Shown piece by piece: positions 51,944 through 62,432 of a DNA stretch of 64,000 bases (position 1 is the stretch's first letter; each line of letters opens with the position of its first letter). Position numbers and translations under genes: made by a program. The notes beneath the pieces are model-generated. The model saw nothing but the letters and a program-made list of their open reading frames with translations, ran no database searches and was not told the origin of the DNA. The stretch is from Alphaproteobacteria bacterium (GTDB lineage: Bacteria > Pseudomonadota > Alphaproteobacteria > UBA6615), in contig CBDBHH010000005.1 of assembly GCA_965205535.1 (NCBI GenBank), forward strand, positions 266,712-330,711, in the 5' to 3' direction.

Positions 51944-52351
51944 TCAGGCGCCGCTGGCCGAACAAGCCAATTCAAGCCGCGTCTCTTCGGCCAGCAGAAG
52001 CGCCCACGTGTCGGCCGGCATGAAACGCGGTGCCAGATACTTGTAAAGGTCGCGCAAAAGGGGCGTCACGGCATAGGGGTCAGAAATATTGCCCGGCAGG
52101 CGGTCCCATGATTCCGCGATCTCGTCCCAGGGGTTCAGGCGGGCGAACATCTCATCGCGAATATCGCGGATTGCGCTGCGGTGGAATTCAAAATTTTCGA
52201 ACAGGGAAACGATATTCGAAAGGCGCGCATCGATCTCGGCCAGGCTAAGTCCCAACGCGTGAACGGGGACTGAAATAAGCCGGGCGACCGGATCTACATC
52301 GCTGAGAATGCTCGCATGGTGGGCAAAGTCGCGGCGCACTATTTTTCGCAA
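51944..52351 (-). CDS. hypothetical protein (possible gene remnant) abutting the island's left direct repeat
   Basis: 135 aa ORF whose first codons overlap repeat copy 1; no motif recognised. Confidence 0.3.
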   Translation of the reverse strand: MRKIVRRDFAHHASILSDVDPVARLISVPVHALGLSLAEIDARLSNIVSLFENFEFHRSAIRDIRDEMFARLNPWDEIAESWDRLPGNISDPYAVTPLLRDLYKYLAPRFMPADTWALLLAEETRLELACSASGA

Positions 52352-52912
52352 TCAGTAGTTAGGGGCTTCAGTCCAGTGCCATGGGCAGGACCGGCTGTTC
52401 CGGCCGCCCCGCCACCGCGCCGGGAACCGTGAACCGCCTGCCGCCGAATATATCGGCGACGGTCAGCATCTGCTGCATTCGGGTTCCCCAACTTCACACC
52501 CCGCGCCTTGGCGGCCTGCAAGGCTGCCTTCGTGCGGATGGAAATGGATTCCCGCTCATGCTCGGCCACAGCGGCCAGAATGTGCATGGTCAGGCGATTT
52601 GCCTCCGGCATATCGACGGCCACAAAGTCCGCACCGCTCTCCATCAGATTTGAAATGAAGGCGACACTCCGTGCCAACCTGTCCAGTCTGGCAATGAGCA
52701 AGGGTGCCTTCTTCTGGCGGCAAAGGGTTAGGGCTTCAGCTTAGGGCAGGGCGGTCATTCTTCCTGCCGCTCTCGATCTCCGTGAATTCAACCAGCAATT
52801 CACCACGACCGGCAATGAAGCGGGTCACTGCTTCGCGCTGCGCTTCCAGGCCAAGGCCGGAACGGCCTTGCCTATCAGTCGATACCCGGAAATAGCCCAC
52901 AAAATCAGTCAT
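52339..52912 (-). pseudogene. serine recombinase (resolvase/invertase family) with a +1 frameshift near 52731-52733; its 3' end lies inside the direct repeat
   Basis: N-terminal fragment MTDFVGYFRVSTDRQGRSGLGLEAQREAV... (catalytic Ser context) ends at NDRPALS*. Removing one A from cctaagct restores ...NDRPALAEALTLCRQKKAPLLIARLDRLARSVAFISNLMESGADFVAVDM...KARGVKLGNPN. Confidence 0.6.
52347..52473. repeat. 127-bp direct repeat, copy 1 (left boundary of the island)
   Basis: Identical to 62675..62801 except for 2 mismatches (G/A at 52370 and C/T at 52427 in copy-1 coordinates). Confidence 0.8.
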
Positions 52913-53010: not shown

Positions 53011-55323
53011 CTATCCCTTCTTTGTGAAAGCGATAGTTCTGGTGCAATGATTGACGAGTTCCTGATCGTTGATGATCTCTATAGCATATGCGGGGTTTGT
53101 TTCATGGTGAAACTTGTTGGCATAGTCGAGCAGTTTACGGAGCTCGTCAGCATCCGCCTGATTCAAAATCGGTGTTCCTGCTGTCAATGCCTGCACACAT
53201 TCACTGTGGAATGGCCCCAACATTTTACCCGGCGGAAAATGGGCGGGGTAGGCAACACGCAAAAAGGCTTCCAGAACATAGCGCAGGGCAGTAGCAACCT
53301 CTCGCGCTTTGCTTTGATCAGACTGGTTAAGATACTGCTGAATCAGGGCATGTCGCTTATCATGCTCCGTGATGCAATCCTGCGTTACGTCCCAAGTATC
53401 AATAGTTGATGATTGACCGCTTCGGATGATGTGCAGCGCAGCGCGGGCTGTCTTATCAGCGCCTTCCCAAACCTGACAAAGGAACGGTTTTGAGTGTGAA
53501 AGAAGGATAACCTGCTGAACACGCTGTGCCAGCCCCCGAACCTCTTGAATCGTTGCGAGTGATCTATGCTCATCCAGACTGGTCATCGGATCATCAATGA
53601 CAATGACCTTTTGTGCTAGCCCTGCATCCTGATCAAGAGACGCAAGAAAGAAAGCAAGAGCCAGGGTGTTTCTATCTCCGGCGCTCATCGTATTCCTGAA
53701 TGAAGGGCCATTATTACTGGCAAGCGGCACAGAAACATTGTTGATCAACACATTGTATGTGCATGATGATCCGCCTCTGTTATTTTGAGCGGAAACGCTA
53801 TCCAGCCGGAAACCTGCATTGAACTTACCCAGGTAATCGTTGATCGCCTGCTGATATGTGGCGAAGATACTGGCGCAATATTGTTCAAGGTCAGTCTTTG
53901 CCTTGTCACGCTTCTCCTCTGTTTTCTTCTTTTCCCCTTTCTCTGCCAGATAAGCATCGCAATGCTTTGCCACATCTGATTCAAATCGTGCCTTGATCGT
54001 TTTCAATCTGTTCAAGTCATCCGTTAGCGTTGCCACATTAGCTGTGGCCGCTTTTTCTTTCACGGCCTGGATCGGATCATTGCATTCGATCAGGCTTGAA
54101 GAGAGCCCTGTAATGGCCTCACGATGCCCGTCATAGGATTTTACAGCCTCAAGAATATCTTCGGAAAGAGTCATCTTCTCAAGAGGTGAGGCCAGCTTTG
54201 CTCTCAAGATTTCAAGGATAGGCTCACGCGCTGCTTTCCAGGCGCGGGCAATCTCTGCTGTATCGACCTGAATAGCAAGAATATCCGTGAATTTCCGCCA
54301 GAATTCACCGTTCTGAATTGCTTCACTGACAGCACGTTCAAAGGCAGATTGGATTTCTCCCTTGTGAGCATCAGCAATCGACTTTCCAATGTCAGTGATA
54401 GCCTGCTTCAGGGAAGTGTAAACATCACTGAAATAGGTCTCATAGTGAGCAATAATATCTGAATCTTTCAGCTCTTGGTCACAGAACGGGCATCGCTGTT
54501 CATCATCAGAAGAGTCGGCGATCTTCTGCATCCCCTCACCAATCCAGGACTCCGCACCTTTACCCAATTTTTCAAGATGCTGCTTCACTCTGGTTGTTGC
54601 TTCGACCTGCAATCCAGGCAAGTCACGTTGAAGGATTGCTTCAATCGCAGCGGTATCGAATTCAGGCAGTGATAGGGGCTTGAACTCGCCTTGCTTATTG
54701 ATTGGATCAGCGTCTTTCGCAGCGGCCAGATTTCGTTCAGCCTGCTGAATCTCATCATCTATATCTATTTTGGGATTCTTCTGCAACGCGCAGAAGTCCT
54801 CAACATTAATTGTGCCTCGCGCCTTGACAGGAATAGCCGCTTCCTTGGTTTTCAGGGTGCGATTATGCTCTTCGATTTTGCTGATATGCCCTTTCAGGGA
54901 TTCATTCAGCGCAATCCCCTGCGCCCCTAGAATAAGCTCATGCAGCTTCTGTTTATGGCCAGAATCAACTACAACTCCCGAACAAACATTCTCGACCACA
55001 AAGTGATCGTCGAAAATAGCGATTTCCGGGAGATGGGTCTGCCATGCACCATTTTGAAAAATGAACGATTGCTGGCCATTTGCCTGCACAACGATATGTG
55101 GATCGGCATTTGCATGAGGGGCGGTGCCGGATTGCAAGCGTTTCCGTTCTTCGATCAATGTTGGATTATTGGTGCTCAAAGAGCGTAGCAAATTGGCAAG
55201 GGTTGTCTTCCCTCGTCCATTCTCGGCATATATCAGCGTCATGCCGGAAAATCTCGTTTGCTGCCCTGGGGAGACGCTATCGAATTGCCCAACATTTCTG
55301 ATCAGTTGAATCTGCTCAATCAT
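53011..55323 (-). CDS. AAA_13-family ABC-type ATPase with coiled-coil/CxxC insertion and a C-terminal about 130-aa domain (RloC/PrrC-like putative anticodon nuclease)
   Basis: Walker A YAENGRGKTTL, central CPFCDQ in a predicted coiled coil (zinc-hook-like), ABC signature MSAGDRNTLALAF, Walker B VIVIDDPMTSLD, H-loop LLSHS. Confidence 0.65.
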   Translation of the reverse strand: MIEQIQLIRNVGQFDSVSPGQQTRFSGMTLIYAENGRGKTTLANLLRSLSTNNPTLIEERKRLQSGTAPHANADPHIVVQANGQQSFIFQNGAWQTHLPEIAIFDDHFVVENVCSGVVVDSGHKQKLHELILGAQGIALNESLKGHISKIEEHNRTLKTKEAAIPVKARGTINVEDFCALQKNPKIDIDDEIQQAERNLAAAKDADPINKQGEFKPLSLPEFDTAAIEAILQRDLPGLQVEATTRVKQHLEKLGKGAESWIGEGMQKIADSSDDEQRCPFCDQELKDSDIIAHYETYFSDVYTSLKQAITDIGKSIADAHKGEIQSAFERAVSEAIQNGEFWRKFTDILAIQVDTAEIARAWKAAREPILEILRAKLASPLEKMTLSEDILEAVKSYDGHREAITGLSSSLIECNDPIQAVKEKAATANVATLTDDLNRLKTIKARFESDVAKHCDAYLAEKGEKKKTEEKRDKAKTDLEQYCASIFATYQQAINDYLGKFNAGFRLDSVSAQNNRGGSSCTYNVLINNVSVPLASNNGPSFRNTMSAGDRNTLALAFFLASLDQDAGLAQKVIVIDDPMTSLDEHRSLATIQEVRGLAQRVQQVILLSHSKPFLCQVWEGADKTARAALHIIRSGQSSTIDTWDVTQDCITEHDKRHALIQQYLNQSDQSKAREVATALRYVLEAFLRVAYPAHFPPGKMLGPFHSECVQALTAGTPILNQADADELRKLLDYANKFHHETNPAYAIEIINDQELVNHCTRTIAFTKKG

Positions 55324-56525
55324 CCGGCCACCTCATTTTTCTTCAAACAAGCTCCGCCTGGATCATAGACGTATCCTGAAATTGTGCCGTCCTTGATGCG
55401 CTCGACGGCTTCCTTGATGACAAAAAGCGGGACAAGGAACCATTCACGCGGGATCACTGGCCGTCCAAACCTGTCCTTGATCTCAACCTCAAGGCGGGCA
55501 GGCTCGAAAATGCGGTGAATGAGGTTTTCCAGCTTGGTGCGGTTGATGTTGTAAAGCTCGTAGGTCGCCACGATCTCCACATTCGCCATGAGGAATGTTG
55601 GCTGAAGGTGCGCCCCTGCAATCCGCTTCTCAACGCTCATATTGGTGACGCCAATCTTGTGAACCAGCTCCCGGTTTTCTTCGACAAGCGGGTGTTCTGA
55701 CTTGCTGCGCAGCACATAAATGATGCCACTTGCTTCATCCCCGTCGATCGTCTGATCAGAAAATAGCGGGCCTGCGGTTGGCTCTGTGATCCTACGGCCT
55801 GCTTCGTCCTTGTTCAGGGCTCGCTGTAGCGAGCGCATCAGCATGTTGCTCTTGGTGCCGTTGTCAAAAATCACGCGAAGGCGGGCGTCTGTGCGCCCCT
55901 GATCGGTGATTGTCGTTTCGCCTTTCTCGGCCACATATGCCTTCTGGCCTCCGACAATGAAGAACCGGCCTTTCTCGATCTCGGCCTTCATCTCGAAGGG
56001 ACGTGTCTCACGCAAGCCAGAATTCAGCTCTGCCTGCACCTGCTCAAACAGGGGCTTGAAGGTCTCAAAATCCTCGCAGCGGGTGCGACTGGCCACTTCA
56101 TCAGCAGCGGCTCTTTTCTCGGCGGTCGATCGGACGTGCTTCAGCTCGGTGATCGGCGGCGCATCGAGCTCGACGCCAAGCTCGGCCAGCAGCGCGTCAT
56201 CATCCAGCTCGGCTGGGTCTGCATCTGCGGTGATTGCAGCCATGTCACCAAGCAAGCCTTGATGATCCATTGGCTCGACCAATTCCCGGCAATCCTTCAG
56301 CTTGCGGATACGATCCAACCGAACGGCATAGAGCCGTTCAAAAATATCCCGGTCTTCACCATGCAGGGGAGGGCGGCCATGCTCTTCAGCAAAGCGTTGC
56401 ACTTCCTCAAAGCCTGCAATGACACGCTGTTCGCGGGGGGTGTATGTTGCAGCCTTCTTGGTCTGCACCTCGACGCCAAGCTCGGCCAGCAGCGCGTCAT
56501 CATCTTGTGTGAATTCCTTAGCCAT
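55320..56525 (-). CDS. T5orf172/GIY-YIG-like nuclease-domain protein with duplicated N-terminal DDDALLAELGVE motif
   Basis: GIIYVLRS ... HKIGVTNMSVEKRIAGA matches the T5orf172/MUG113 pattern (YV...KIG.T.....R). A 37-bp perfect DNA repeat (56168-56203 and 56469-56505) encodes the duplicated peptide; overlaps the helicase gene by 8 nt. Confidence 0.55.
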   Translation of the reverse strand: MAKEFTQDDDALLAELGVEVQTKKAATYTPREQRVIAGFEEVQRFAEEHGRPPLHGEDRDIFERLYAVRLDRIRKLKDCRELVEPMDHQGLLGDMAAITADADPAELDDDALLAELGVELDAPPITELKHVRSTAEKRAAADEVASRTRCEDFETFKPLFEQVQAELNSGLRETRPFEMKAEIEKGRFFIVGGQKAYVAEKGETTITDQGRTDARLRVIFDNGTKSNMLMRSLQRALNKDEAGRRITEPTAGPLFSDQTIDGDEASGIIYVLRSKSEHPLVEENRELVHKIGVTNMSVEKRIAGAHLQPTFLMANVEIVATYELYNINRTKLENLIHRIFEPARLEVEIKDRFGRPVIPREWFLVPLFVIKEAVERIKDGTISGYVYDPGGACLKKNEVAG

Positions 56526-58575
56526 TGGCGGCCTCCTGCTTCATTCGCGCAAGATAGGCAACGCCTTCTGCCATTTTCTTTTCCCAGGCATCAGACGATG
56601 TGAGGGACGGCAACCGGCCACGATCCTGCTTGAATTTCAGGGCGCGTTGCGCAAGGTCTCGCGCCTCTTCAGGGGTGAGTTTGATCTTCTTGGCTGAAAT
56701 GATCGCCGCAATCCTCTTCAGGCTCTCTTCGCTCATGGTCTTTGCCAGGATCGCGTATGCCTCACCGAATGGATTGATCCGGTCGATCAAGTCAATGTCC
56801 AGTTCCCGCACGTCCATTGCGAATTTCCGCACCCCGTCGATCAGGGCGGTATTGCCGCCGGGATTGTCATCATCATCGCCGCCGGACAGGGCGATTTCCT
56901 TTGCCTTCTGTGTCAGGTTAAGGGCGGCAATCGCATGTTGCCGCACGGCTTCCTGATCCTCTGCATCCAGCTCCGGGAATTTGTCTCCGACGATCTTGCC
57001 CATGCGCACCTGTGTCAGCTCTTCTGGCACAAGCTCTTCATCAAACAGGCCGCGCTCGATCGCGGTCTTGTCTTGCACAAAGGCGGTGATCACTTCGTTC
57101 AAATCCTCACGGCAAATCCGTTCGGCTTCCTTGCTCTTCGGCTCAGCAAGTCCCTTGATTTCGATCTGAAAGCTGCCCTGTTCCTCATTGAAGCCGATAT
57201 TCGCCTTGTTCGGATCATAGCCGCCTTCGCCATAATCAAAGCCCTCTACAGGGCCGCTATTGGCGTTCTTGGGCGTGAAATTGAAGCGGGGCGCTAGCAC
57301 CTGCTCCATCAACAGGCTGGCGGCAATGGCCTTCAGCGTGTCATTGATGGCTTCGGTCACTGCCTCTTCAGACGCATCCGGCGCGGCAATCAGGTTTGTG
57401 AAGCGGGCGCGTGATTTGCCCTTCGCATCACGGGTTGCCCGTCCAATGATCTGCACGATCTCGGTGAGACTGGCACGATAACCAACAGTCAGGGCGTGTT
57501 CGCACCAAATCCAGTCAAAGCCTTCCTTGGCCATTCCCAGGGCAATGATGATGTCCACATGATCCCGGTTGTCCTTGTGCGCCGGGTTTTTCAGCGCAGC
57601 GGAAACACGGTCACGCTTGGCGGGTTCATCATCCACCAGGTCAGCGATTTTCAGCACACGGCCTTCAGATGTTTTGACAAGCTGGAAACCTGTTTGTGGA
57701 TCAGGCCCTTGCCATTCACCTAACTCTTCCATGATGTGCTCGACTTCGCGGTGCTTGTCCTTGGTGCTCTCACGGGAATTGACGTTTGGGATATGCAGGA
57801 TCGTCTTCTCGTTCGGATCGAGCACCTTCAGGATGTCATCGGCATAGGAGCCGGAATAGAAGAAATAGCCGATGTCGAGCGTCTTCAGGTATTGGTAGCC
57901 GTTCAACTGCTCATAGTAGGTGTAGGTGACGCTATCGAATTTCGCTTCATCCTCCGGCGACAGGACGGCTTCTGCATCGCCCCGGAAATACGATCCCGTC
58001 ATGGCGACAAGATGCACCTTGTCGCGGGAAATGAAGTCTCCCAGGTGCTGCCCCAGCTTGTTGTCCGGGTTGGCGGAAACATGGTGGAATTCGTCAACCG
58101 CAATCAGCCGGTTGTCGAAGGCTTCCACGCCGAATTTGTCCACGGCAAAGCGGAACGTGGCATGGGTGCAGACAAGCACCTGATCGTCACTGTCCAGGAA
58201 GGCACCAACTGAATTGACCTTGCCGCCGTCCGTGCCGGGGGCGTTGCACAGATTCCATTTTGGCTGCACTGTCCAGTCAGCCCAAAAGCCGAATTTTGAC
58301 AGCGGCTCATCATTGAAGCTGGAGCCGATAGACTTCTCCGGCACCACGACGATTGCTTGCTTCAGCCCCTGATTTTGCAGCTTGTCGAGCGCAATGAACA
58401 TCAGCGCACGGCTTTTCCCGGATGCAGGCGGCGACTTGATCAGAAGATATTGCTCGCCCCGTTTCTCAAAGGCGCGTTCCTGCATTGTCCGCATTCCAAG
58501 CTCGTTGGACTTGGTTGAATTGCCGGTCTGGGCGTAGGTCACGGAAACGGAGGGGACGGATTTCTGAACGGTCAT
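56518..58575 (-). CDS. DEAD/DEAH-box (SF2) helicase with a C-terminal about 250-aa extension
   Basis: Walker A LLIKSPPASGKS, DEAH-like VDEFHH, motif VI QIIGRATRD. Confidence 0.75.
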   Translation of the reverse strand: MTVQKSVPSVSVTYAQTGNSTKSNELGMRTMQERAFEKRGEQYLLIKSPPASGKSRALMFIALDKLQNQGLKQAIVVVPEKSIGSSFNDEPLSKFGFWADWTVQPKWNLCNAPGTDGGKVNSVGAFLDSDDQVLVCTHATFRFAVDKFGVEAFDNRLIAVDEFHHVSANPDNKLGQHLGDFISRDKVHLVAMTGSYFRGDAEAVLSPEDEAKFDSVTYTYYEQLNGYQYLKTLDIGYFFYSGSYADDILKVLDPNEKTILHIPNVNSRESTKDKHREVEHIMEELGEWQGPDPQTGFQLVKTSEGRVLKIADLVDDEPAKRDRVSAALKNPAHKDNRDHVDIIIALGMAKEGFDWIWCEHALTVGYRASLTEIVQIIGRATRDAKGKSRARFTNLIAAPDASEEAVTEAINDTLKAIAASLLMEQVLAPRFNFTPKNANSGPVEGFDYGEGGYDPNKANIGFNEEQGSFQIEIKGLAEPKSKEAERICREDLNEVITAFVQDKTAIERGLFDEELVPEELTQVRMGKIVGDKFPELDAEDQEAVRQHAIAALNLTQKAKEIALSGGDDDDNPGGNTALIDGVRKFAMDVRELDIDLIDRINPFGEAYAILAKTMSEESLKRIAAIISAKKIKLTPEEARDLAQRALKFKQDRGRLPSLTSSDAWEKKMAEGVAYLARMKQEAANG

Positions 58576-58578
58576 GGT

Positions 58579-61350
58579 CTATGCTTTTCTCTTTTGTCTG
58601 GTTGTTTTGGCCTCTGCGGTCATTTTGGTGTAAAGCTCGAACAGCTTTTCCAGCCGTTCGGTGTCATTGCGAAATCGTCTGCCGATATAGATGCGTTCAA
58701 GCACTTCGTCGTTGCGCTCATGCGCAGCGCGCAGGTTTTCGGGCATGGCGTCGGGTTTGTAGAGGTCCGCGATGGTGGCGGGGAAATGCGCCTCACGGGC
58801 CAAGAGGATGTCCTCTGCGCAGCGGGTCAGATCGGCGCGGTTTTTCTCGGTCAGTCTGGGGACGGGAAAGGTGTTCCAGCCGAGGGTGTTGGAATAGCGA
58901 TATCGGGTTTCCAACTTGCCACAGACCGTGGCGATCCAGACCAGATGAATGCGCGATGCGATCAGCGCCATGTTCCACAGTGGCGCGTCGTAGAGGGCGA
59001 AGGCGAGGTTTGAGACAATGGTCCCTCTTTCAGAATACCCACACGGCAAGAACTGACGTGTTTCAGAAGAAACACTCGGCACAATCATAACGGTTTCCGA
59101 GCCGCTCTGCCGCAGTTCTCCAAACTTGTGAGGTCGTTTTGCTGCATCTCTTGTTGCTTGCTTGGTACTGGCCAGACGCATTTGCTTCACAGCTTCAATT
59201 CTAGAAGCCAATTGAGGGGATTGCCCAACCCATTCGGCATCATCATCACCAATCCACAGACAGAAGCGTTCATTGCCTCTGATAAACTCCGATGATCCAT
59301 ATATTTTACGAACGATCTTCTTATACTGTTCATCAGTAAGTGCCAGCGCTGTGATCTCAGCCGGCTCAAGAAGGAGATTTCCTCCATCTGTGGGCTGATT
59401 GCCTTTTGTCATTTCAGAAATTATCGAAATTGGCTTCGAACACTTTAGGACTTCAACATTCGGCGCGCCCACCAAATAGGCGTTGATGTTCTCGACCTCT
59501 TTCATCACCGCCTCATTTTCGACATTCAGGCTATAGAGCCTGCGCGTCTGGTTCGTCATGTTCGACACCGCAATAATCGCCACGGTGACGCCCGCATTGT
59601 GGCTGGCAAGGTTGGCCCATTTAAACGATGTATGGGCAAAGCTGATATGGTGGCCGGTGGCAAAGATCGCGGGCCAGAGGATCGGCACCTGCTGTCCCTG
59701 ACAGATCGAATTGGTGGACACAAAGGCCGCGCTTGAATTGGTGTGCAGCCCAAAATCAGCAGCCTTCATGAACCAGCCCGCGACATAATCCAGTGTCTTC
59801 CAGTTCTTGACCCGCCCATCAAAGATCGCCTTCAGGTCTTCCTTCTGTTCCGTGCTTTGCCATTGGCTGCCAAGATACGGTGGATTACCGCAAATATAGG
59901 TCTCACCCCCTTCATTCTCAAAGTCGATCTCGGCTTGATCAACAGGTGTCATGAAAAGATCATCGCCATGCACCTTCACACCCGTTCCCGTGGGTGGGCA
60001 GATGCTCAACCAATCTACCCGCAAGGCATTACCACAGGTGATCCAGTTCATCGCATCCAGTGGCAAGAATTCGGCCAAGGCTTCCTTCTGGCCGCGATAG
60101 GTCACGTCACACTGATACTCGGCAATAATCAAAGCCAGCCGGGCAATTTCAGCGGGGAAGTCGCGCAGATCAATTCCCCGAAAATTAGTCAGTGGAATCT
60201 CGGTGTGCCGGTCGCCTTCACCGCGCCTTTTGTTGATTTCGGCCTCGATCTCCCGCATTTCCTTGTAGGCAATGACAAGGAAATTTCCTGATCCGCAGGC
60301 GGGATCAAATACCCTGATCTTGGCCATGCGGTTGCGCAGGTTCAGCAGCTTGCGGAGATTATCTTCTGCCTCTTCCAGCTTCTCGCGCAGGTCATCAAGA
60401 AACAGGGGATTGAGCACCTTCAGAATGTTCGGAACGCTCGTGTAGTGCATCCCCAAAGCCCCGCGCTCATCCTCATCGGCCACGGCCTGGATCATCGAGC
60501 CAAAAATATCGGGGTTGATTTTTGTCCAGTCCAGATTGCCGATATGCAGCAGGTAGGATCAGGCAATCTTGCTGAAGCGCGGCACGTCTGTTCCGTCTGA
60601 AAACAGGCCGCCATTCACATAGGGGAAGTCCTTTGCCCAACGAGCAATTCCGGCGGTGTCAAAGTCTTCAGCCCGCGTGTTCATCGAGCGGAAAATCTCG
60701 CTGATCACTTCATGGGTGTTCGAGCTATCCGGGGCGCTCATCTTCTCGATGGTGCATGTGAACAGGTCGGCCTTGCCGAAAATGTCGGTGTCTTCGGCAA
60801 AGAAACAGAAAATCAGCCGCGCCATGAAGTGGTTCATGTCGTGGCGGCGTTCTGCCTGCCCCCATTCGGGATTGTCTTTCAGCAGCTCCACATAGAGCCG
60901 GTTCAGGTGTCCGGTTGCCTTGATGTCGAAGGCATTGTCGCGGATTTGCTTGACGGTCGAGATTCCGGCCAGGGGCAGGAAAAAACCAAAGTGATCGGGG
61001 AAGTCGGGAAAATCACAGACAATGACTTCACCGCTATTCAGGTCTTCAGCCGAAAAATCGCTGCCGTCCGTTGCCAGCACAAATTTGGCCTTGGCCTTTG
61101 TGGTGGCGGGGCTTGCCTTCAGCTCGGCAAGGGTCTCGGCAACCTTGCCAGCAGGCGCGGCCTTGATATGGATATTGTTGGTCTGCAACACGCCTCCCAC
61201 ATCGGAGCGGTTGGACGTGCCTTTGCGCAGGCGCTTCAGGGTCGTCGGCTTGTTGCCGAATGCCTGAAGGAAGGCAAAGGCGAATTCTTTCGGCGCGAAT
61301 GGCTCGGCGGCAAGATTTGAGATTGCTTCTTCGATCTCGACGGCGTTCAT
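58579..61350 (-). pseudogene. MmeI-family type IIG restriction-modification enzyme (N-terminal endonuclease, then gamma-class N6-adenine MTase, then TRD) interrupted by an in-frame TGA at 60559..60561
   Basis: ORF 61350..60559 carries the MmeI-like nuclease/helical region (RLIFCFFAEDTDIFGK, FPYVNGGLF) and ends at ...PRFSKIA*. The same frame continues as SYLLHIGNLDWTKINPDIFGSMIQAV- into ORF 60495..58579, which carries MTase motifs I (FDPACGSGNFL) and IV (NPPY). Confidence 0.75.
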
Positions 61351-62432
61351 GTGCGCCCCTCGTCATTCGTCTCGCGTGTTCCCATTGGCAGGCCATACCA
61401 GATGGCTCGGCCTGCGCCATGCCGGACAAGCATTCCCTTGTCCATCAGGCTGCGGAATGTGGCTTTCAGGGTGTTCGGGCTGGCTCCGTGCTCCCGCACC
61501 ATGTCGCGGTTTGTAACGCGGCCATGCTGGCGGGCATAGTCCAGGATCATGACGGCCAGCTCTGGCAATTCAGCAAGGGCGCGTTCCTCGCGCTCTATCT
61601 TGTCGGCCAGGCGGCGCTTCTGGTGCTGCAAGGATCGCATGAAAAACAGCAGCCAGGGCTGCCAGTCCGGGGCATCGCTGCGGATGGTTGCCTGTGTCTG
61701 GCGCAAGGCCAGATAGTAGCCTTCCTTGCTGTGCTCGATCACGCTCTCAAGGGATGAATAGGGGACATAGGCATAGCCTGCCTGCAACAGCAGCAGGGTT
61801 GTGAGGACACGGCTCAAGCGTCCGTTTCCATCCTGAAAGGGATGGATTTCAAGGAATACCACGGTGAAGACAGCGACGATCAGCAGGGGGTGCAGGCGCT
61901 TCAGCTCTCGCGCCTCATTCAGCCATTGCAGCAGCTCCGTCATGCGCTGCGGCGTATCGAAGGGGGTGGCGGTTTCAAAGACGATCCCGACCATTTTGCC
62001 GGATGCGTCGAAGGCTCCCACGTCATTGCGCCCGGTCTTGTATTCGCCCCGGTGGCGTTCGTCTTTGGCGCCGTAACGCAGCAAGTCGCGGTGAAGCTGT
62101 TTGATGTGGTTTTCCGTGATGGGAATGTCCTGCCATGCCTGAAACACGGTCTCCATGACCTCGGCATAGCCTGCAACTTCCTGCTCGTCACGGCTATCGA
62201 ATTTCTTGATGTCCAGCTTGCCCAGCAGCTCTTCCACCTCACGATCAGACAGCTTGCTGCCCTCGATGCGGGTGGATGATCCGATGCTCTCGATCATCGC
62301 CACACGGCGAAGGGCTTGCAGCCGTTCCGGCGCAAGCGTTCCAAGAGCCCGCCATGCGCCCTTAAACTCGTCTATTTCGGAGAGAAGGGACAGTAATCCG
62401 GGTGTGATCTGAATCGTTTCGGTCTGAATCAT
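61347..62432 (-). CDS. Fic-family protein (AMPylation-type catalytic motif) with C-terminal winged-helix region
   Basis: Canonical HPFQDGNGRLSR motif; 361 aa; overlaps the MmeI-like gene start by 4 nt. Confidence 0.85.
   Translation of the reverse strand: MIQTETIQITPGLLSLLSEIDEFKGAWRALGTLAPERLQALRRVAMIESIGSSTRIEGSKLSDREVEELLGKLDIKKFDSRDEQEVAGYAEVMETVFQAWQDIPITENHIKQLHRDLLRYGAKDERHRGEYKTGRNDVGAFDASGKMVGIVFETATPFDTPQRMTELLQWLNEARELKRLHPLLIVAVFTVVFLEIHPFQDGNGRLSRVLTTLLLLQAGYAYVPYSSLESVIEHSKEGYYLALRQTQATIRSDAPDWQPWLLFFMRSLQHQKRRLADKIEREERALAELPELAVMILDYARQHGRVTNRDMVREHGASPNTLKATFRSLMDKGMLVRHGAGRAIWYGLPMGTRETNDEGRT

Follow-up and report, generated by a model that had tools for sequence, protein, structure and literature searches.

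The window, i.e., the whole stretch of DNA that was analysed, covers 64,000 nucleotides of an Alphaproteobacteria bacterium (GenBank assembly GCA_965205535.1, contig CBDBHH010000005.1, positions 266,712 to 330,711), and the genes in question are an overlapping pair in it, which encode a superfamily 2 (SF2) helicase and a protein with a T5orf172 domain. Both genes belong to a single tightly packed operon on the minus strand, in which a Fic-domain gene, an MmeI-like methyltransferase gene, the helicase gene, the T5orf172 gene and an AAA_13 ATPase gene follow one another in this order (Table 1). The GC content falls from about 0.63 to 0.48–0.57 across ~52.3–62.5 kb of the window, and no tRNA gene flanking this island was found. 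It is likely that the helicase and the T5orf172 protein represent YeeB and YeeC of a three-gene, MmeI-derived, restriction-like system, whose YeeA/DnmA-type gene adjoins them.

The helicase matched the Pfam profiles DEAD (28 bits) and ResIII (25.5 bits), both above the cut-off. The core extends over residues ~28–430, and is followed by a conserved C-terminal region (431–685). The Walker A sequence PPASGKS (49–55), the DEFH box (161–164) and the motif VI sequence QIIGRxTR with its arginine finger (375–382) showed little or no variation among relatives down to 46–49% identity, which places the protein among the SF2 helicases/translocases. YeeC matched MUG113 (E 4.5e-16, 59.6 bits) and T5orf172 (E 2.3e-12, 47.8 bits), again above the cut-offs, and its residues Y270, R301 and E361 did not vary among 55 sequences with identities as low as 32%. 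From the profile match and the conserved Tyr, Arg and Glu, it belongs to the T5orf172 branch of the GIY-YIG superfamily. The original prediction had described a 685-residue helicase with a long C-terminal extension, whose gene overlaps by 8 nt a gene for a 401-residue protein with a C-terminal T5orf172/MUG113 signature. This description was accurate: the Pfam match of the helicase is limited to residues ~28–184 and the remainder is family-specific, the overlap (ATGGCTAA) was confirmed by reading the sequence, and the Pfam match of YeeC lies at residues 267–377. Sequence searches of the PDB with the YeeB and YeeC family profiles found no meaningful relative.

The MmeI-like gene is one frame of 923 codons, which is called as two open reading frames (ORFs; 263 and 638 amino acids) owing to one in-frame stop. 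The first ORF matched Pfam MmeI_N and MmeI_hel, and the second MmeI_Mtase (E 1.5e-119), MmeI_TRD (E 3.7e-83) and MmeI_C. In the comparison with MmeI (PDB 5HR4) by phmmer, the score was high (E 2.2e-141), and the alignment began only at residue 88. Counted back from the alignment offset, the position of the catalytic Glu80 of MmeI corresponds to His61, which was found in 70 of 70 relatives, and the next Lys was not conserved. The N-terminal domain thus appears to have lost the PD-ExK nuclease site, and the protein is a PD-ExK-less MmeI homologue, not an enzyme of the Type IIG/IIL kind, such as MmeI proper, with PD-ExK in the same polypeptide. The PADLOC model REase_MTase_IIG covered both ORFs with a score of 759 bits despite the absent PD-ExK, and therefore automated tools would mislabel this gene.

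The conservation of the locus was surveyed with one genome per species and a 12-sequence alignment of close YeeC relatives. A YeeC-like gene was present in at least 567 species; 80 species loci were kept, and the set searched by tblastn comprised 85 related loci (L001–L085). Loci in which the upstream DNA exceeded 5.5 kb were taken as informative (n = 60), and in all 60 an MmeI-like gene lay upstream on the same strand. The helicase gene stood directly before the YeeC-like gene in every locus that reached that far upstream. The methyltransferase and helicase genes are 3 nt apart in the window and, owing to inserted cargo, 8 nt to 2.9 kb apart in the related loci. Thousands of close relatives of the helicase and of YeeC were found (83–100% identity among the 120 best matches listed for each). 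The profile-based protein search returned only relatives at 64–87% identity, and distant gene contexts were taken from plasmid records. The same gene order was found on plasmids of Vibrio alfacsensis and Arthrobacter, where the methyltransferase, helicase and YeeC proteins were 36%, 46% and 35%, and 38%, 47% and 38% identical over the full length, respectively, with sizes of ~900, ~670 and ~400 amino acids. A YeeC relative on a plasmid of Latilactobacillus sakei (Bacillota) was 32% identical over ~88% of the query; the incomplete gene table of this plasmid gave only transposases upstream.

Because the MmeI-like partner was found in 60 of 60 loci and the order was the same on the distant plasmids, the conserved unit is the trio and not the pair. 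The window agrees with this unit in having an SF2 helicase gene downstream of the methyltransferase gene and a GIY-YIG/T5orf172 gene directly after it. The original prediction had considered the pair as a self-contained two-gene module and the restriction-modification enzyme next to it as a separate neighbour; the gene-neighbourhood analysis turned this neighbour into the constant third partner, which is broken by one TGA in the window. A stand-alone helicase-nuclease defence module, which acts independently of the methyltransferase and perhaps with the AAA_13 ATPase, is therefore very unlikely. It would fit the overlap and the intact state of the helicase and T5orf172 genes beside a broken methyltransferase gene, the translational coupling of the AAA_13 gene to the T5orf172 gene, and the frequent occurrence of helicase-nuclease pairs in defence systems. 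However, such a module is opposed by the constant MmeI-like gene, by the full-length homology of all three proteins in the same order in distant phyla, and by the defence loss on deletion that is already reported for yeeA/yeeB in V. crassostreae. In addition, tblastn found the AAA_13 gene in none of the 85 related loci. PADLOC, which had been proposed as a check, gave no convincing match of either protein to a known helicase-nuclease system: the best matches were PbeA (E 3e-6, partial, over ~70 residues), PDC-S57 (E 1e-3) and SngC (E 7e-3), none of them full-length, and the library scanned has no dedicated YeeABC model.

The trio has already been described. Morgan et al. (2009) divided the MmeI homologues into two sets, with or without the N-terminal PD-ExK motif; the set without it, typified by Bacillus subtilis YeeA, is 'invariably' beside the DEAD-family helicase YeeB and YeeC, which has a GIY-YIG motif, and a Type-I-like system with single-strand modification was proposed (PMC2731913). 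Nye et al. (2020) reported that YeeA (DnmA) methylates GACGAG, and that deletion of dnmA caused no growth defect and left the transformation efficiency unchanged (PMC7261158). Fernandez et al. (2023) reported that the dnmA-yeeB-yeeC order is conserved across bacteria, with a T5orf172 domain in YeeC (PMC9973331). The yeeAB genes of V. crassostreae 7F1_18 make the strain resistant to one group of phages (Piel et al., bioRxiv 10.1101/2021.05.05.442762). We found no later paper that names or dissects this system. The pair had been regarded as unassignable to any named system, and in our reading it corresponds to the YeeA/DnmA-YeeB-YeeC cluster of these papers (PMC2731913, PMC9973331).

The B. subtilis cluster resembles the operon of the window in the succession of a PD-ExK-less MmeI homologue, an SF2 helicase and a protein with a C-terminal T5orf172/GIY-YIG domain, and in its location on a horizontally acquired low-GC island beside recombinase and toxin genes. 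They differ in that YeeB and YeeC of B. subtilis reportedly lack stretches within their C-terminal regions and no restriction was seen there, whereas the methyltransferase is the broken part in the window. The yeeA-yeeB genes of V. crassostreae 7F1_18 belong to the same family (PMC9973331) and provide the sole in vivo evidence of phage defence, but they adjoin RADAR and not Fic or AAA_13, and the activity of the window copy is probably lost.

Several points weigh against the assignment to a restriction-like YeeABC system. It was made by gene order and domains, and B. subtilis YeeB and YeeC were compared by their description only. B. subtilis YeeABC restricted neither plasmids nor phages (PMC7261158, PMC9973331), and the genomes of Bacillus phages show no depletion of the DnmA site (PMC9973331). 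In the literature, no DNA cleavage, translocation or complex formation has been demonstrated for any YeeABC system. The AlphaFold2 model of the helicase had a mean pLDDT of 53 and was not used for a fold search; the model was poor because only relatives of at least 86% identity entered the alignment. Finally, the methyltransferase gene of the window is interrupted, and its copy of the system may be without function.

Table 1. Features of the operon and its borders. Positions are those of the window.
Feature	Position	Strand	Residues	Basis and remarks
Fic-domain protein (SoFic-like)	61347–62432	-		Pfam Fic; PADLOC SoFic E 3.9e-50; stop overlaps the MmeI-like start by 4 nt
MmeI-like (YeeA/DnmA-type) methyltransferase and target-recognition gene	58579–61350	-		Pfam, PADLOC; 3-nt gap before the helicase gene
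Premature TGA of the MmeI-like gene	60559–60561	-	codon 264	direct sequence reading
Hypervariable target-recognition part of the MmeI-like gene	58951–59553	-	~600–800	column identity, 57 species
YeeB-like SF2 helicase/translocase, 685 aa	56518–58575	-		Pfam DEAD and ResIII; 8-nt overlap with the next gene
Helicase C-terminal helix-loop-helix, signature GRLPS...D.WE..MAEG	56545–56679	-	633–677	hhalign
YeeC-like protein, 401 aa	55320–56525	-		Pfam MUG113 and T5orf172; 4-nt overlap with the AAA_13 gene
Acidic motif copy 1, DDDALLAELGVE	56469–56504	-	YeeC 8–19	exact repeat; family-wide at the same position
Short helix with acidic motif 1			YeeC 7–15	AlphaFold2 model
YeeC helix-loop-helix, signature GRPP...D.FE..YA	56301–56444	-	YeeC 28–75	AlphaFold2, hhalign
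Helical hairpin domain			YeeC 30–86	AlphaFold2 model
Acidic motif copy 2, DDDALLAELGVE	56169–56204	-	YeeC 108–119	36 nt identical to copy 1; family-wide
Second motif helix			YeeC 109–115	AlphaFold2 model
Middle domain, Tudor/SH3-like	55776–56087	-	YeeC ~147–250	AlphaFold2 model (beta-rich)
T5orf172/GIY-YIG-like nuclease domain	55338–55733	-	YeeC 265–396	AlphaFold2 model
AAA_13 ATPase, 770 aa	53011–55323	-		Pfam AAA_13 E 1.5e-41; PADLOC PDC-S06 E 9.6e-77
Truncated serine recombinase (resolvase), at the low-GC island edge	52339–52701	-		Pfam Resolvase, only profile positions 68–144

The column of the in-frame stop had Arg in 62 and Gln in 7 of 70 homologues, and the TGA is thus read as a nonsense change of the CGA-to-TGA type or as a sequencing error. 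An ORF of ~900 amino acids or more was intact in most relatives examined, and five were interrupted, at various positions. The sequence suggests that the methyltransferase/specificity subunit was probably inactivated in this genome, and since the TGA stands where 62 of the 70 relatives have Arg, the system as a whole is probably disabled here. The stop looks recent, because the sequence flanking it is still 92% identical to intact copies. This bears on the possibility that the locus is a decaying relic that no longer serves defence, and that the methyltransferases of intact copies act mainly as orphan epigenetic regulators with vestigial YeeB and YeeC, as was concluded for B. subtilis. The nonsense codon, the five broken relatives, a locus of Ruegeria pomeroyi that keeps only YeeC and a helicase fragment, and the negative phage and transformation tests in B. 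subtilis (PMC9973331, PMC7261158) speak for it. We consider it improbable nevertheless: besides the recent look of the single stop and the intact gene in most relatives, the intact helicase and YeeC are 75–89% and 64–86% identical, respectively, across many genera and have retained every catalytic motif, which indicates strong constraint, and yeeAB is active in Vibrio. The R. pomeroyi copies (L004 and L005) have an intact YeeC-like gene, the last ~12% of the helicase and no MmeI-like gene, in metabolic surroundings.

The MmeI-like protein behaves like a specificity subunit, as judged from its hypervariable and swapped recognition domain. Among 57 species, the mean pairwise column identity was 0.32–0.48 in the recognition domain, compared with 0.8–0.95 in the methyltransferase core, and the mean pairwise identity of the helicase was 0.81 overall. 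The DNA of the window was 92% identical to that of the closest loci, L001–L003, across the Fic gene, the N-terminal part of the methyltransferase gene, the helicase gene and the YeeC gene, but bases 59004–59560 could not be aligned to them. An unalignable segment amid 92% identity points to a swap of the recognition domain, and hence of the specificity, between near-identical elements.

The AlphaFold2 model of YeeC had a mean pLDDT of 88. Its putative nuclease domain matched the GIY-YIG domains of SLX1, and a Foldseek search of the PDB with the whole model gave nothing at E <= 0.001. The predicted Tudor-like middle domain is a small new point. The second tyrosine of the GIY-YIG motif is Lys290 in the YeeC-like family, and T5orf172 domains are annotated as DNA-binding. 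Both facts would suit a BREX-like exclusion without cleavage, in which YeeC is a DNA-binding or regulatory adaptor and not a nuclease; MmeI-like methyltransferases act in this manner in BREX, weak PglX matches were obtained, and Bacillus phages do not avoid the DnmA site (PMC9973331). On the other hand, the first Tyr and the equivalents of the catalytic Arg and Glu are invariant in the YeeC family, a T5orf172 protein with the same deviations is a proven nuclease (PMC8263062), and no BrxA, BrxB, BrxC, BrxL or PglZ was found in ORF, Pfam and PADLOC scans of the window. We regard exclusion without cleavage as very improbable.

The N-terminal half of YeeC contains a twin acidic motif. The original prediction had reported an exact 37-bp in-frame duplication in this region. 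The repeat is in frame and encodes the peptide DDDALLAELGVE twice, but it measures 36 nt, with a spacing of 300 nt and with flanking bases that differ on both sides, and the duplication is not fresh. The sequence (D/E)DDALLAELG(V/I)E was found at both positions in nearly all of ~80 relatives examined, and pairs of the LDDIFxxDDLGLL type were recognisable in the Vibrio, Arthrobacter and Latilactobacillus YeeC proteins. The pair is thus an ancient conserved twin motif, of which only the identity at the DNA level is special to this lineage: the two copies share usually 6–14 identical nucleotides in the relatives, and 23 in L001–L003. The internal copy of L001–L003 is identical to both copies of the window, and therefore it was the N-terminal copy of the window that became identical to the internal one, apparently through a small number of substitutions or the conversion of a short tract. 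The two acidic motifs may be docking peptides.

A shared element was detected between the C-terminus of YeeB and the N-terminus of YeeC. By hhalign, helicase residues 633–677 matched YeeC residues 28–75 with a probability of 93.8% (E 1.7e-7), while a control helicase segment gave 0.4%. The helices of this region in the YeeC model (30–49 and 61–75) had pLDDT values above 95. Pairwise BLASTP of the helicase C-terminus against the YeeC N-terminus gave no match, and only the profile-profile comparison detects the module. These ~45-residue regions are evidently homologous as judged from their profiles, which is a small new observation, and the module may serve both proteins for docking or for binding DNA. 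Public records call close helicase relatives 'pseudomurein-binding repeat-containing protein'. Helicase residues 633–677 also gave a match to Pfam PMBR below the cut-off (21.4 versus 24.9 bits), which may be the source of this name. The name is probably wrong, because the match is sub-threshold and lies on the helix-loop-helix module.

Compared with other restriction systems, the MmeI-like protein is homologous to MmeI in the helical spacer, the gamma-class N6-adenine methyltransferase, the recognition domain and the C-terminal domain, and an asymmetric site is expected to be modified on a single strand, as in MmeI. In contrast to MmeI, which cuts with its own N-terminal PD-ExK domain, cleavage in the system of the window would presumably be delegated to the helicase and the GIY-YIG protein. 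Type III enzymes (Mod and Res, e.g., EcoP15I) may offer a parallel in the asymmetric site, the methylation of one strand, the dependence of restriction on the methyltransferase subunit, the SF2 ATPase with a ResIII-type N-terminal domain and, as the likely logic, an ATP-driven search between sites. However, Type III has a Mod protein and a Res subunit that fuses helicase and PD-ExK nuclease, and the window has a separate helicase, a GIY-YIG nuclease and an MmeI-like methyltransferase; the likeness is an analogy and not membership. Type I and Type ISP systems are similar in having a separate motor subunit and a methyltransferase/specificity unit, which is what Morgan et al. (2009) meant by Type-I-like, and they tend to host cargo genes such as PrrC. 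Unlike them, the system of the window has no separate HsdS, because its recognition domain is fused to the methyltransferase, its nuclease is a separate, third protein with another fold, and its methylation is expected to be single-stranded.

From these comparisons, we propose the following mechanism. The MmeI-like protein would recognise a short asymmetric site via its variable recognition domain and methylate one adenine, and thereby mark the host DNA; its homology is clear, and the activity is deduced by analogy with MmeI and B. subtilis DnmA. Upon meeting foreign DNA without this methylation, the MmeI-like protein would recruit the SF2 ATPase YeeB, which would translocate or loop the DNA and deliver or activate the GIY-YIG-type nuclease YeeC, and YeeC would cut. 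The N-terminal half of YeeC, with the twin DDxLLxELG motifs, the helix-loop-helix and the Tudor-like barrel, probably tethers YeeC to its partners. As in Type I and Type III systems, there would be no restriction without the methyltransferase subunit, and its loss would therefore be tolerated. Such loss is tolerated in the window, in B. subtilis and in the Vibrio mutants with YeeB and YeeC intact, and we infer from this that the methyltransferase subunit is most likely required to target restriction. The harmless deletion of dnmA in B. subtilis fits this dependence, though the B. subtilis system does not restrict at all. In the window, the system has most likely been switched off by the premature TGA of its methyltransferase gene, and Fic and AAA_13 would be independent cargo at the two ends of the operon.

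The cargo differs among genomes. ORFs in the gap between the methyltransferase and helicase genes included BrnT toxins (6 of 43), RelB, CcdB, HEPN, Schlafen/AlbA_2, GmrSD and PtuA-like ATPases. The slot after YeeC held AAA_21, AAA_15 or OLD-type ATPases, AriA-like and GajA-like proteins, Drt3a reverse transcriptases, SIR2 and GmrSD, and an AAA_13/PDC-S06 gene in 3 of 44 cases, with the window counted. A Fic gene upstream of the module, translationally coupled to the MmeI-like gene, was common only to the window and L001–L003. It was absent in the 80 species loci; one of them, L062, had a distant match to Fic downstream, on the other strand. Because both slots hold differing defence or toxin genes among genomes, Fic and AAA_13 are interchangeable passengers. 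The AAA_13 gene, once suggested as a partner of the pair, is therefore one of many such cargo genes. The C-terminal sequence RVAYPAH (Rx5H) of the AAA_13 protein was considered as a nuclease site of the HEPN/PrrC/RloC kind and rejected, as it was unconserved in the sole related cargo protein available. YeeC relatives were found on 232 plasmids, of which 94 are conjugative. These plasmids, the differing flanks and the toxin-antitoxin and defence neighbours bear out the defence-type role in a mobile, variable island that had been proposed, and argue against a housekeeping context. By its gene content, the three-gene system appears to be the scaffold of a small defence island.

The serine recombinase at the edge of the island has no N-terminal part, and full resolvase genes lie a few kb downstream of YeeC in L001–L003. 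In eight further loci (L014, L032, L050, L051, L072, L075, L078 and L080), the helicase and YeeC were 74–85% and 65–80% identical to those of the window, and the assemblies were labelled Verrucomicrobia, Burkholderiaceae, Terriglobia, Pseudomonadaceae, Bacteroidetes and Dehalococcoidia. High identity across these phyla means either very recent cross-phylum transfer or binning errors of metagenome-assembled genomes.

The two cargo slots of the operon may capture second-line defence genes, e.g., the AAA_13 ATPase. A precedent is the PrrC anticodon nuclease, which is guarded by the Type I enzyme EcoprrI. One might go further and regard YeeB and YeeC as a portable restriction effector cassette, which docks on the nuclease-dead N-terminal domain of the MmeI-like protein via the shared module and the twin motifs, with the cargo possibly coupled to it as PrrC is to EcoprrI. 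We offer this as a speculation that is unlikely to hold; if true, the cargo genes could be functionally coupled to the restriction complex.

The locus of the window is an ordinary, probably inactivated member of the YeeABC family, and the result for it is mostly corrective, as recognising the trio corrects the annotation of the island. The family is very widespread, as YeeC relatives occur in at least 567 species and on 232 plasmids and form 630 clusters at 50% identity (E <= 1e-30). Its parts are labelled by pipelines as 'Type IIG enzyme', 'pseudomurein-binding repeat protein' and 'GIY-YIG nuclease family protein', and therefore YeeABC is routinely missed or misfiled. The trio has been described before, but some interest remains in a family still without biochemistry or a solved structure. 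Handles for its mechanism are provided by the twin motifs of YeeC, the helix-loop-helix module that YeeB has in common with YeeC, the invariant catalytic residues and the swaps of the recognition domain between near-identical loci.

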